Part shown: positions 2,558 through 4,260 of the stretch, in pieces
Position numbering within the stretch: position 1 is the stretch's first letter
Layout of the letters: every line of letters begins with the position of its first letter
From: a virus
Taxonomy: Duplodnaviria; Heunggongvirae; Uroviricota; Caudoviricetes
Virus record (IMG/VR): IMGVR_UViG_2563366941_000004
Strand: one strand, 5' to 3'
Length of the DNA: 4,260 bases
Program-made: the position numbers and the translations under genes
Notes under the pieces: model-generated
What the model saw: only the letters and a program-made list of their open reading frames with translations
Told to the model about the DNA's origin: nothing
Databases searched by the model: none

Positions 2558-2561
2558 GTCC

Positions 2562-2588
2562 ATAAGAAAGCCCCTCCGGAGAGGGGCT
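2562..2588 (-). terminator. Putative rho-independent terminator at the minus-strand end of repeat copy A
   Basis: Perfect inverted repeat AGCCCCTC / GAGGGGCT (2569-2576 / 2581-2588) with a 4-nt loop; on the minus strand it is followed by UUUCUUAU. Confidence 0.5.
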
Positions 2589-2797
2589 AAAGCCGCGTAT
2601 CTGTATCATCATGCACATGGTGCCGGGTGCCTCCCGGTGAGTTCAGCCCGGTGCCACTAAACCCGCGTCATTCTCGTTTTGATAATCAGAGATTATACCG
2701 TCACCAGTCGCCCCTCCGCTCAGGGGGATTCACCATGCGAAATTTTTTTAACAAATGCCCAGTCTGACAGGCAACTGTCAACTTACTGAATTGTGAG
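2568..2797. repeat. Structured repeat unit, copy A (diverged direct repeat of 3055-3265)
   Basis: Shares perfectly conserved blocks with copy B: aagcccctccggagaggggct (2568-2588), catggtgccgggtgcctcccggtga (2616-2640), gcccctccgcNcagggggattcaccatgc (2710-2738, one mismatch), tttaacaaa (2747-2755), ctgaattgtgag (2786-2797). Sequence between blocks is diverged with indels. Confidence 0.8.
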
Positions 2798-2833
2798 CAA
2801 CATAGCATTTAACGGGGAACCTGTTTTCTGCAG

Positions 2834-2861
2834 TAAAAAGGCCCACCGGAGCGGATGGGCC
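2834..2861 (-). terminator. Putative rho-independent terminator just upstream (minus-strand sense) of repeat copy A
   Basis: GGCCCA (2840-2845) pairs with TGGGCC (2856-2861) around a 10-nt loop; on the minus strand it is followed by UUUUU (plus A-run 2835-2839). Confidence 0.45.
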
Positions 2862-3048
2862 TGGAAGGATAGCGGTCATGTGATGCCGGTTTCCCGGTAA
2901 CTCAGCACCGGTATCTGAGTCAACGTTTTCTCTACTGGGTCATTTCCGATACGCCCTGCCTGCTGACAGGCTTTCATCACATCTGAAAATATAGCACCCT
3001 GACTGATACTGTAGTACCTAAGGTTCCAGAAACTGTGATGTATCCGGC

Positions 3049-3075
3049 ACAGAAAAGCCCCTCCGGAGAGGGGCT
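3049..3075 (-). terminator. Putative rho-independent terminator at the minus-strand end of repeat copy B
   Basis: Same AGCCCCTC-CGGA-GAGGGGCT hairpin (3056-3075); on the minus strand it is followed by UUUUCUGUG. Confidence 0.5.
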
Positions 3076-3265
3076 GGAGAGTGGCGCTATGTGCCATTGC
3101 ATGGTGCCGGGTGCCTCCCGGTGAATTCAGTACCAGCACCTGAATCCGCGATTATCCCATATACCTACTCGCTGATTGCCCCTCCGCACAGGGGGATTCA
3201 CCATGCCAGTTTCTTTTAACAAACTCCCCGCAAACCAGACAACAGTCAACCGCCTGAATTGTGAG
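3055..3265. repeat. Structured repeat unit, copy B (diverged direct repeat of 2568-2797)
   Basis: Conserved blocks at 3055-3075, 3100-3124, 3178-3206, 3214-3222 and 3254-3265 match copy A in the same order and orientation. Confidence 0.8.
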
Positions 3266-3310: not shown

Positions 3311-3387
3311 TGGCACGTTGTACTGGATTCGAACCAGTGACCGATTGCTTAGAAGGCAATTGCTCTGTCCGGCTGAGCTAACAACGC
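3311..3387 (-). tRNA. tRNA-Arg (anticodon UCU), 77 nt, CCA encoded
   Basis: Manual cloverleaf on the minus strand: acceptor GCGTTGT/ACAACGT (G1.U72), D-arm GCTC-AGCCGGACA-GAGC, anticodon arm ATTGC-CTTCTAA-GCAAT (UCU), T-arm ACTGG-TTCGAAT-CCAGT, discriminator G, CCA. Third position in a trio that resembles the ileZ-argN-argO cluster of phage 933W (recalled). Confidence 0.8.
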
Positions 3388-3400
3388 AGGATACAGATAA

Positions 3401-3477
3401 TGGACCGCCTTCGGGGACCCGAACTCCGCGCAACCAGCTTCGAAGGCTGGCGCTCTTTCCTGATGAGCTAATGGCGG
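3401..3477 (-). tRNA. tRNA-Arg (anticodon UCG as read), 77 nt, CCA encoded; non-canonical features, possibly degenerate
   Basis: Manual fold: D-arm GCTC-ATCAGGAAA-GAGC, anticodon arm CCAGC-CTTCGAA-GCTGG (perfect 5-bp stem, U33, anticodon UCG, A37), T-arm CGGAG-TTCGGGT-CCCCG. Deviations: C1-G72 start, A.A mismatch at 6:67, A.C mismatch at 52:62, G at position 58 where A is near-invariant. Confidence 0.6.
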
Positions 3478-3484
3478 TATGTGA

Positions 3485-3560
3485 TGGTGGCCCTTGCTGG
3501 ATTTGAACCAGCGACCTGGCGATTATGAGTCGCTCGCTCTCACCACTGAGCTAAAGGGCC
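3485..3560 (-). tRNA. tRNA-Ile2 (anticodon CAU, lysidine-type, AUA-decoding; ileX/ileZ-like), 76 nt, CCA encoded
   Basis: Minus strand GGCCCTTTAGCTCAGTGGTGAGAGCGAGCGACTCATAATCGCCAGGTCGCTGGTTCAAATCCAGCAAGGGCCACCA. Perfect 7-bp acceptor stem, anticodon loop CTCATAA, T-loop TTCAAAT. Very close to the E. coli ileX sequence as I recall it, so Ile2 rather than Met is favoured, but the anticodon alone cannot distinguish them. Confidence 0.8.
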
Positions 3561-3609: not shown

Positions 3610-3936
3610 TCAAACGATTAAATCCTGAACTTCCCTGACTGTCTGCTCAAAACGTCCGGTCTCCAGTTCAACGCCAATCGCACGACGCCCGAGCGCCAGT
3701 GCCGCTTTTACCGTTGAACCTGAGCCCATAAAAAAATCTGCAACCAGGTCTCCCGGACGACTGCTTGCGCTGATTATCTGCTGCAGCATTTCTGCCGGTT
3801 TTTCGCACGGATGTTTCCCGGGATAGAACTGCACCGGTTTATGCGTCCAGACATCGGTATACGGCACCTGCGCTGTCACGCCAAAATACCGCCGCAGTCG
3901 GCATTCACAACCACAAGCGTGTTTAACGTACTGCAC
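3610..3936 (-). pseudogene. 5'-truncated beta-class DNA (N6-adenine/N4-cytosine) methyltransferase, C-terminal ~108 codons only
   Basis: Translation carries the C-terminal signature ...KHPCEKPAEMLQQIISASSRPGDLVADFFMGSGSTVKAALALGRRAIGVELE (HP-x-x-KP and FxGSGST AdoMet motif I). No DPPY motif or N-terminal half. The frame is closed by an in-frame TGA at 3945..3943 two codons upstream of the only start, a GTG with no Shine-Dalgarno. Upstream 3946-4039 is AT-rich and not MTase-like. Confidence 0.65.
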
Positions 3937-4039
3937 AGCTTTTCAGACATAAAAAGGCCGCCTGATAGCAGCCTTTTCACATTAAAATTAAGTTTTTCTT
4001 TACTCTGTAGTATGGGAAATTAGCATTCCCTACTGGGTT

Positions 4040-4260
4040 GGTAATGACTCCAACTTATTGATAGTGTTTTATGTTCAGATAATGCCCGATGACTTTGTCA
4101 TGCAGCTCCACCGATTTTGAGAACGACAGCGACTTCCGTCCCAGCCGTGCCAGGTGCTGCCTCAGATTCAGGTTATGCCGCTCAATTCGCTGCGTATATC
4201 GCTTGCTGATTACGTGCAGCTTTCCCTTCAGGCGGGATTCATACAGCGGCCAGCCATCCG
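4040..4260 (-). mobile_element. IS1 insertion sequence, partial (right-end 221 bp; element continues beyond window end)
   Basis: 4040 onward reads GGTAATGACTCCAACTTATTGATAGTGTTTTATGTTCAGATAATGCCCGATGACTTTGTCATGCAGCTCC..., which is the reverse complement of the IS1 right end (terminal inverted repeat plus insB 3' end) as I recall it, continuing to the window edge. Confidence 0.9.
4055..4260 (-). CDS. insB: IS1 transposase InsB, C-terminal part (partial, 5' end outside window)
   Basis: Minus-strand frame ends ...[58 protein letters not shown] with stop TAA at 4057..4055, 16 nt inside the IS1 terminus, matching the InsB C-terminus. Confidence 0.8.

Follow-up and report, generated by a model that had tools for sequence, protein, structure and literature searches.

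Evidence that a conserved inverted repeat is the closing helix of STnc100-family small RNAs in a lambdoid prophage

Main finding

Analysis of a 4,260-nt stretch of prophage DNA (here called the window, at its full length) revealed a pair of 7-mers, CATGGTG and CACCATG, which recur as inverted repeats in two repeat units, A and B. These 7-mers are very probably the two strands of P1, the closing helix of a minus-strand prophage sRNA of the STnc100 family, each unit ending at its own terminator. P1 consists of six strongly conserved base pairs and one or two weaker outer pairs and encloses a multi-hairpin domain of about 100 to 125 nt. The P1 helix is already part of the curated, published family model, so that the family and its structure are known. 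Added here are explicit covariation support across about 20 genera, a strand test, and a third copy of the unit.

Results

The repeat units are members of the STnc100 family

An Rfam scan of the window identified units A and B as full-length minus-strand matches to STnc100 (RF02076, model positions 1 to 206), a gammaproteobacterial sRNA family first listed in Salmonella. Copy A (2558..2767, minus strand) scored 165.4 bits (E 1.6e-38) and comprises an upstream leader, the P1-closed domain, a linker, and a terminator. Copy B (3045..3235, minus strand) scored 136.3 bits (E 4.8e-31). The RF02076 gathering score is 47 bits, and the two units score 3 to 3.5 times as high. According to the Rfam structure line, GCAUGGUG (2738-2731 and 3206-3199) pairs with CACCAUG[U/C] (2622-2615 and 3106-3099), so that the 7-mers make up the long-range helix of the model (positions 30-37 paired with about 140-147), referred to as P1.

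The 5' arm of P1 in copy A (2731..2738, minus strand; RNA GCAUGGUG) includes CACCATG at 2731-2737 and was located by Rfam, pattern search, alignment, and folding. The 3' arm (2615..2622, minus strand; RNA CACCAUGU) includes CATGGTG at 2616-2622 and forms a G:U outer pair. Directly 3' of the 5' arm lies the P2 hairpin (2708..2730, minus strand; AAUCCCCCUGAGCGGAGGGGC), and the P5 hairpin with its flank (2623..2640, minus strand; UCACCGGGAGGCACCCGG) abuts the 3' arm. The P5 18-mer of copy A, the most conserved block of the family, is identical in copy B at 3107-3124. Inverted-repeat search, pattern search, and folding placed the 5' arm of copy B at 3199..3206 (RNA GCAUGGUG) and its 3' arm at 3099..3106 (RNA CACCAUGC), both on the minus strand; the equivalent of the P2 hairpin is found at about 3177-3198. 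A minus-strand rho-independent terminator follows each unit (2588-2569, 2862-2839, and 3075-3056), which in copy A (2569..2588) reads AGCCCCUCUCCGGAGGGGCU and then a U-tract and in copy B occupies 3056..3075.

The conserved STnc100 hairpins P2 (AAUCCCCCU..GCGG.GGGGC) and P5 (CCGGGAGGCACCCGG) are present in units A and B and co-occur in hundreds of loci. Compared with RF02076, the two units have the whole model, P1, P2, P5, and the terminator in common with the family, and nothing essential differs; unit A carries a variable P3 insert that is 15 nt longer, besides the G:U outer pair. Units A and B are thus RF02076 members by every testable criterion.

Position and length of the arms

An exact-pattern search placed CATGGTG on the plus strand at 2616-2622 in copy A and at 3100-3106 in copy B; the reverse complement lies at 2731-2737 in the former and at 3199-3205 in the latter. 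This agrees with the first-pass annotation as regards the pair in copy A, whose arms are 108 nt apart, and the identity of both 7-mers in copies A and B. For copy B, the arm at 3100-3106 stands, but the second arm, given earlier as 3200-3206 with a gap of 93 nt, lies at 3199-3205, which leaves a gap of 92 nt. The description of the intervening sequence as diverged holds for the central P3, where a 15-nt indel is found, but not for the P2 and P4/P5 hairpins, which are near-identical between the units. The blocks adjoining the arms share 97 to 100% identity between units A and B. The complementary arms of unit B are 8 nt long (GCATGGTG/CACCATGC). In unit A, the arms form 8 bp, the outer G:U pairing being possible on minus-strand RNA only, and 9 bp in the MFE fold. 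On the two strands of the window, the 7-mer CATGGTG was expected 0.86 times and observed 4 times, a count reached by 1 of 200 shuffles; owing to the paralogy of units A and B, the counts lack independence, and significance must come from the comparison with other genomes.

A diverged third copy carries compensated P1 pairs

A third, diverged member of the family, copy C (2833..3006, minus strand), has its own P1 and its own terminator (2862-2839, minus strand). Its Rfam score of 30.1 bits (E 7e-4) is below the RF02076 gathering score of 47 bits. The 5' arm AUGUGAUG (2982-2975) and the 3' arm CAUCACAU (2885-2878), both on the minus strand, were found as an inverted repeat and by in-register alignment with copies A and B. 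Compared with copy B, four of the eight P1 pairs are double-compensated (G:C->A:U, C:G->U:A, A:U->G:C, and G:C->A:U). The earlier statement that the window offers no covariation, made on the basis of copies A and B, is therefore superseded. Copy C keeps P1, P2, P4, P5, and the terminator, each with a different sequence; its P2 is GCCUG-UCAG-CAGGC and its P5 is CCGG-GAAA-CCGG. The domain fold of copy C has a z-score of -3.5. The P5 18-mer of copy C is present in 117 IMG/VR contigs, which indicates that this copy represents a widespread subfamily missed by the Rfam model.

P1 covaries across homologues

Homologues were gathered by exact match to the flanking hairpins P5 or P2, so that the arms were not selected upon. 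The P5 18-mer TCACCGGGAGGCACCCGG matched at least 120 loci in species-representative genomes, and the P2 pattern matched at least 120 viral contigs. Genera among the P5 matches listed include Kosakonia, Citrobacter, Enterobacter, Salmonella, Klebsiella, Raoultella, Pantoea, Erwinia, Rahnella, Trabulsiella, Leclercia, Cedecea, Escherichia (E. ruysiae), and Shigella, and a few of the matches listed are evident chance ones in unrelated phyla. An Rfam check of 16 of these loci gave 22 STnc100 matches at the gathering threshold in total, all from other genera, with at least one match in 13 of the 16. From about 20 enterobacterial genera and the viral contigs, 149 non-redundant representatives were aligned with MAFFT. 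The alignment windows were cut at a fixed distance from P5 and are thus independent of pairing. As a consequence of the exact-match collection, the invariance of P2 and P5 in this set is partly by construction; the sequences are also phylogenetically related. Column-shuffle and slide controls served as the nulls for covariation.

The 8-mer that follows P5 varies among the homologues (CACCAUGC, CACCACAC, CACCGCAA, CACUGCAA, CAUAGCAA, CAUCACCG, CACAGCAA, CGUUCCGG, and others), and the 8-mer in front of P2 varies in step with it. A perfect 8/8 partner was found in the instance's own arm for 125 of 223 unique instances, compared to about 29 of 223 when the arms were swapped between instances. Intermediate forms also occur: GCAUGGUG/CAUCAUGC contains one G:U pair, and GCAUGAUG/CAUCAUGC is the compensated A:U form. 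Among the 149 sequences, all eight P1 pairs have changed on both sides, with up to 4 to 6 different standard pair types per position and complementarity kept. In the same sequences, 91.8% of the P1 cells are paired (92 to 99% in the inner six pairs, 78% and 67% in the outer two).

For the four helices together, the covariation was 0.359, compared to 0.155 ± 0.005 for column shuffles, none of 500 of which reached the observed value, and to 0.077-0.097 for slid-partner controls, in which relatedness is kept. The proportion of paired cells in the four helices was 89% with the real partners and 43 to 49% with slid partners. RNAalifold, applied to the same 149-sequence alignment, predicted P1 (7 bp), P2, P4, and P5 de novo. 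Of the checks that had been proposed for the inverted repeat, the test for compensatory changes in homologues has come out positive, and the reading of the 7-mers as a long-range RNA helix is supported by the Rfam P1, the covariation in 149 homologues, and the RNAalifold prediction. P1 is an RNA helix under selection, for which the compensatory mutations give strong support.

The helix forms in minus-strand RNA

Analysis of P1 pairs 3 to 8 in minus-strand orientation revealed 33 G:U/U:G cells and 6 A:C/C:A cells. Because the same pairs would be mismatches on the opposite strand or in duplex DNA, the excess of G:U points to minus-strand RNA. The spacing between the arms ranges from 75 to 122 nt across the homologues.

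These data bear on three other explanations of the repeat. The first-pass annotation had also considered half-sites of a dimeric DNA-binding protein; such a dimeric or looping protein might be, for example, a phage repressor or regulator acting at the unit ends. Exact inverted repeats that are identical in both units and lie in the regulatory part of a prophage would suit such a protein. A protein site, however, would conserve its sequence and not its pairing, whereas here the arms change with complementarity kept. Neither the conserved half-site sequence nor the fixed spacing expected of an operator was found, and the strand asymmetry of the wobble pairs has a meaning only for one-strand RNA. 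We regard the half-site explanation as highly improbable. Even less credit can be given to a helix in RNA transcribed from the plus strand, which would be antisense to the Rfam orientation. Inverted repeats with Watson-Crick complementarity can pair whichever strand is transcribed, and a plus-strand sRNA-like transcript ends nearby, at 2557. The 33:6 wobble asymmetry nevertheless favours the minus strand. So do the outer pair of unit A, which is G:U there but would read A:C on the plus strand, and the minus-strand terminators that follow every unit. The plus-strand transcript, moreover, misses the arms, since its terminator (2529-2550) precedes unit A. It is just as hard to believe that the match of the arms reflects a recent duplication of the unit together with chance and without selection on pairing. 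Units A and B are indeed paralogues whose arms adjoin nearly identical blocks, and 7-mer inverted repeats with arms less than 100 nt apart are not uncommon. The covariation in many genera and the slid-partner controls, which keep the relatedness of the sequences yet lose about half of the pairing (43 to 49% versus 89%), refute this explanation, and the covariation in the diverged copy C speaks against it as well.

Both arms lie within the transcripts of relatives

Both arms of P1 are inside the mapped transcripts of the relatives EcOnc27 and PasD. EcOnc27, the STnc100 copy located just 3' of stx2B in O157 Sakai, was seen at about 235/247 nt on Northern blots and is destabilised without Hfq. 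It is convergent with the anti-sRNA AsxR, and its Hfq CRAC peak is confined to about 80 nt at the 3' linker, ahead of the terminator (PMC4104026). PasD2 of EPEC E2348/69 was assigned to 741157-741328 (172 nt) by RNA-seq coverage and Northern blots (PMC8550237). The first G of GCAUGGUG, i.e., nucleotide 1 of P1, lies at 741157.

A TANNNT hexamer ends 3 to 7 nt upstream of the 8-nt arm in 46 of the 62 homologues with enough upstream sequence. Its position indicates a likely transcription start at the base of P1, and such a start may explain the weaker conservation of the two outer pairs. A strict sigma-70 consensus scan upstream of the units in the window found no promoter; for this reason, the 5' ends of these units are inferred from the relatives. 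The upstream TTGACA/TTGACT boxes in the window have no good -10 element at 16 to 18 nt. The TATAAT element at 2697-2692 (minus strand) was considered as an alternative promoter or a conserved element and rejected, since it is present in only 2 of the 149 representatives; it is probably fortuitous. The first-pass annotation had made the helix dependent on a transcript that starts upstream of this TATAAT. This condition is moot because the element lies in the variable P3 of unit A, is found in so few representatives, and the transcripts of the relatives contain both arms.

A further explanation would place P1 only in a precursor, with the functional sRNA being a processed 3' fragment (linker and terminator) that lacks the 5' arm and with P1 serving for processing or being irrelevant. 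The confinement of the EcOnc27 Hfq CRAC signal to the 3' linker, the two EcOnc27 Northern bands, and the cleavage of the related prophage sRNA PasA from a longer transcript are compatible with this, as are two bacterial loci (L094 and L109) in which the P1 domain forms a tRNA leader that RNase P would cut off. The stable species reported for EcOnc27 (about 235/247 nt) and PasD (172-173 nt), however, have full length, and the 5' end of PasD coincides with P1 nucleotide 1. In addition, P1 and the hairpins that it encloses are under strong purifying and compensatory selection, which argues for a functional domain. A role of P1 in the precursor alone therefore appears unlikely, though less so than the three explanations discussed above.

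Architecture and folding of the units

Within the domain closed by P1, the hairpins follow in the order P2 (3 nt after the 5' arm), variable P3, P4, and P5, which abuts the 3' arm. A linker of 20 to 45 nt and the terminator are left out of this fold. Domain-only folds of copies A, B, and C gave one shared architecture, although cutting at the arms favours pairing of the ends. Whole-unit MFE folds contained P1 in unit A only, and copies B and C with their flanks chose other pairings. The z-scores of the whole transcripts were weak (-1.4 to -2.4). Whole-transcript thermodynamics is thus not decisive, and the case rests on comparative evidence.

Genomic context of the units

The genes of the window all run on the minus strand. 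Read in that direction, a truncated gene for a DNA methyltransferase comes first and is followed by three tRNAs (3560-3311), the repeat units, and the genes for an esterase and a holin. The esterase (2335-482, minus strand) is a sialate O-acetylesterase of the nanS-p type with 617 aa. A stretch of E. coli ML35 is 99.9% identical to the window, and its annotated order is antiterminator Q, kinase/phosphatase, methyltransferase fragment, tRNA-Ile/Arg/Arg, a gap, the SASA esterase, holin, and lysozyme. This locus, downstream of Q/PR', is the moron site in the late region of a lambdoid prophage. Shiga-toxin phages carry stx at this moron site. The location shared by STnc100, EcOnc27, and PasD, downstream of Q and near nanS-p and holin, is also that of the units described here, with which the ORFs and tRNAs of the window agree.

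None of the three sRNA units is annotated by RefSeq/PGAP at the ML35 locus. A partial pseudo "hypothetical protein" is drawn antisense over unit B (window 3091-3219 region; L352, 3605-3730), and a pseudo-ORF is likewise annotated over PasD2 in E2348/69. The phage tRNA cluster (3311-3560, minus strand) is of the ileZ-argN-argO type. Its tRNA with a CAT anticodon was called Met by ARAGORN, and the identical gene is annotated as tRNA-Ile in RefSeq. A minus-strand terminator (3296-3279) lies between the tRNAs and unit B.

A plus-strand sRNA-like element (2469-2557) with a strong terminator (2529-2550) converges on the terminator of unit A. This convergent layout is a "dyad" as in AsxR/EcOnc27. The 3' part of the element (…CACGUUUUAUUGUUUAUUCCUUGCCGCCCGCGUCUCCCAGCGCGGGCUUUUUUU) closely resembles the EPEC RIL-seq candidate "E2348C_1409.E2348C_1408.IGR" (Fig. 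S5 of PMC8550237). Its identity with AgvB or AsxR was considered and dropped, since no RF02702/RF02703 match was found in 2380-2620 at E values up to 10. Between unit A and the start codon of the esterase gene, a minus-strand terminator-like hairpin is present (2445-2460; CUGCGCAACUGCGCGG and then UCUUUUU). In the late operon, this hairpin would need to be read through under Q antitermination.

The esterase-holin spacer (330-482) contains a further minus-strand terminator-like hairpin (373-397; AGCCAUCAGUACUUAACUGGUGGCU and then a U-run). PasA and PasC are found in this spacer in EPEC E2348/69; a blastn comparison revealed no homology to them in the central part of the spacer of the window. 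The 97-aa ORF at 116-409 probably starts later, given that the annotated ML35 holin has 71 aa. At the other end of the window, the methyltransferase ORF (3610-3936, minus strand) is truncated, and the ML35 gene is also a fragment, there followed by kinase/phosphatase genes. The sequence from about 4020 onward (window about 3937-4260) looks like what we take to be an IS1 end.

Comparison with named relatives and with tRNA

EcOnc27/sRNA103 of EHEC O157 (Sp5/933W) belongs to the same family and occupies the same moron site, downstream of Q/PR' and upstream of nanS-p. It forms the same convergent dyad with a short opposite-strand sRNA, and EcOnc27 itself is Hfq-bound. In contrast to EcOnc27, the units of the window lie in a prophage without stx, follow directly after tRNAs, and number three in tandem, as opposed to a single copy; by Rfam, the RNA on the plus strand that converges on unit A is neither AsxR nor AgvB.

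PasD1 and PasD2 of EPEC E2348/69 share the P1 5' arm GCAUGGUG and a similar P2 and are located directly upstream of the esterase gene. [quoted passage not shown] PasD differs in that the canonical P5 hairpin is lost (GCGGGAGGCGCC, with the 3' arm CGCCAUGC), and its linker and seed (UGUGAG) are different; it scores 41 bits against RF02076. Unit A or C was also considered as PasD itself. This was rejected because blastn aligned only 62 nt to the window, at 76% identity, in the P1/P2 region and because the linker differs.

The domain bears some resemblance to a tRNA cloverleaf: the closing stem has about 7 bp, the first hairpin begins 3 nt later, and the last 5-bp hairpin abuts the 3' strand. The P5 loop of the units, however, has 5 nt and is not a 7-nt T-loop, an extra variable arm is present, and CCA/discriminator context is lacking. 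ARAGORN and the Rfam tRNA model made no call at the units and detected only the three tRNAs at 3311-3560. The units were therefore not classified as tRNA or tmRNA, an identity supported by no detector, and the tRNA resemblance is speculative.

Discussion

Proposed role of P1

P1 would lock the 5' domain of the sRNA into one fold. It may also bury the 5' end of the primary transcript, which would protect the RNA from 5'-end-dependent decay, and it would keep the 3' linker single-stranded for Hfq binding and target pairing. In the relatives, the 3' linker holds the Hfq CRAC peak of EcOnc27 (PMC4104026) and the predicted seed UGUGAG of PasD (PMC8550237). PasD has been seen by RIL-seq, and STnc100_4 has been detected by Northern blotting in EDL933. 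Overexpressed sRNA103 raises the fimZ and espA transcripts, and an 11-nt match to stxB has been proposed in silico.

The domain as a possible mobile module

Several loci outside the window show the P1-closed domain in other arrangements. In two bacterial genomes (L094, 4620-4824; L109, 4790-4975), the domain ends 4 to 7 nt upstream of a phage tRNA(CAT) gene, and no terminator intervenes. The domain would there be a tRNA-operon leader that RNase P would release. Tandem arrays of 4 to 5 STnc100 domains, about 125 to 370 nt apart, are found at L046 (890-2020) and L078 (6340-7860). L046 is the Pantoea sp. App145 plasmid pAPP145_2, on which the domains stand in tandem about 130 nt apart. Between some neighbours in the arrays there is just a spacer of about 27 nt, in which TATAAT but no terminator is present. 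Some Rfam matches span the P1 domain only (model positions 30-148 or 15-156).

Across about 20 genera, P2 and P5 hardly change, in contrast to P1 and P4, which drift in a compensatory manner. Terminator-less arrays, fusion or adjacency to tRNA, and invariant P2 and P5 would together point to a conserved partner other than Hfq. On this basis, it is conceivable, although we consider it rather doubtful, that the P1-closed domain (P1, P2, P4, and P5; about 100 to 125 nt) is an autonomous, mobile structured-RNA module and not just the body of an Hfq-dependent sRNA. If so, the partner could be either a protein or, within a tRNA-like fold, a loop-loop tertiary contact, and the role of the module could be in the processing or expression of tRNA operons or in phage-host conflict.

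Significance

The assignment of P1 as the closing helix of STnc100-family sRNAs is of value mainly for the correct annotation of three sRNA genes that RefSeq leaves out. In Shiga-toxin phages, STnc100/EcOnc27 copies adjoin stx2, and a link between sequence variants of this copy and clinical outcome has been described (PMC12711010). The structure helps in reading such variants: changes in P1 or P4 are probably neutral if they preserve pairing, whereas those in the linker, P2, or P5 are likelier to matter. The covariation data provide solid comparative support for the structure of the family, which reaches far beyond Salmonella and E. coli.
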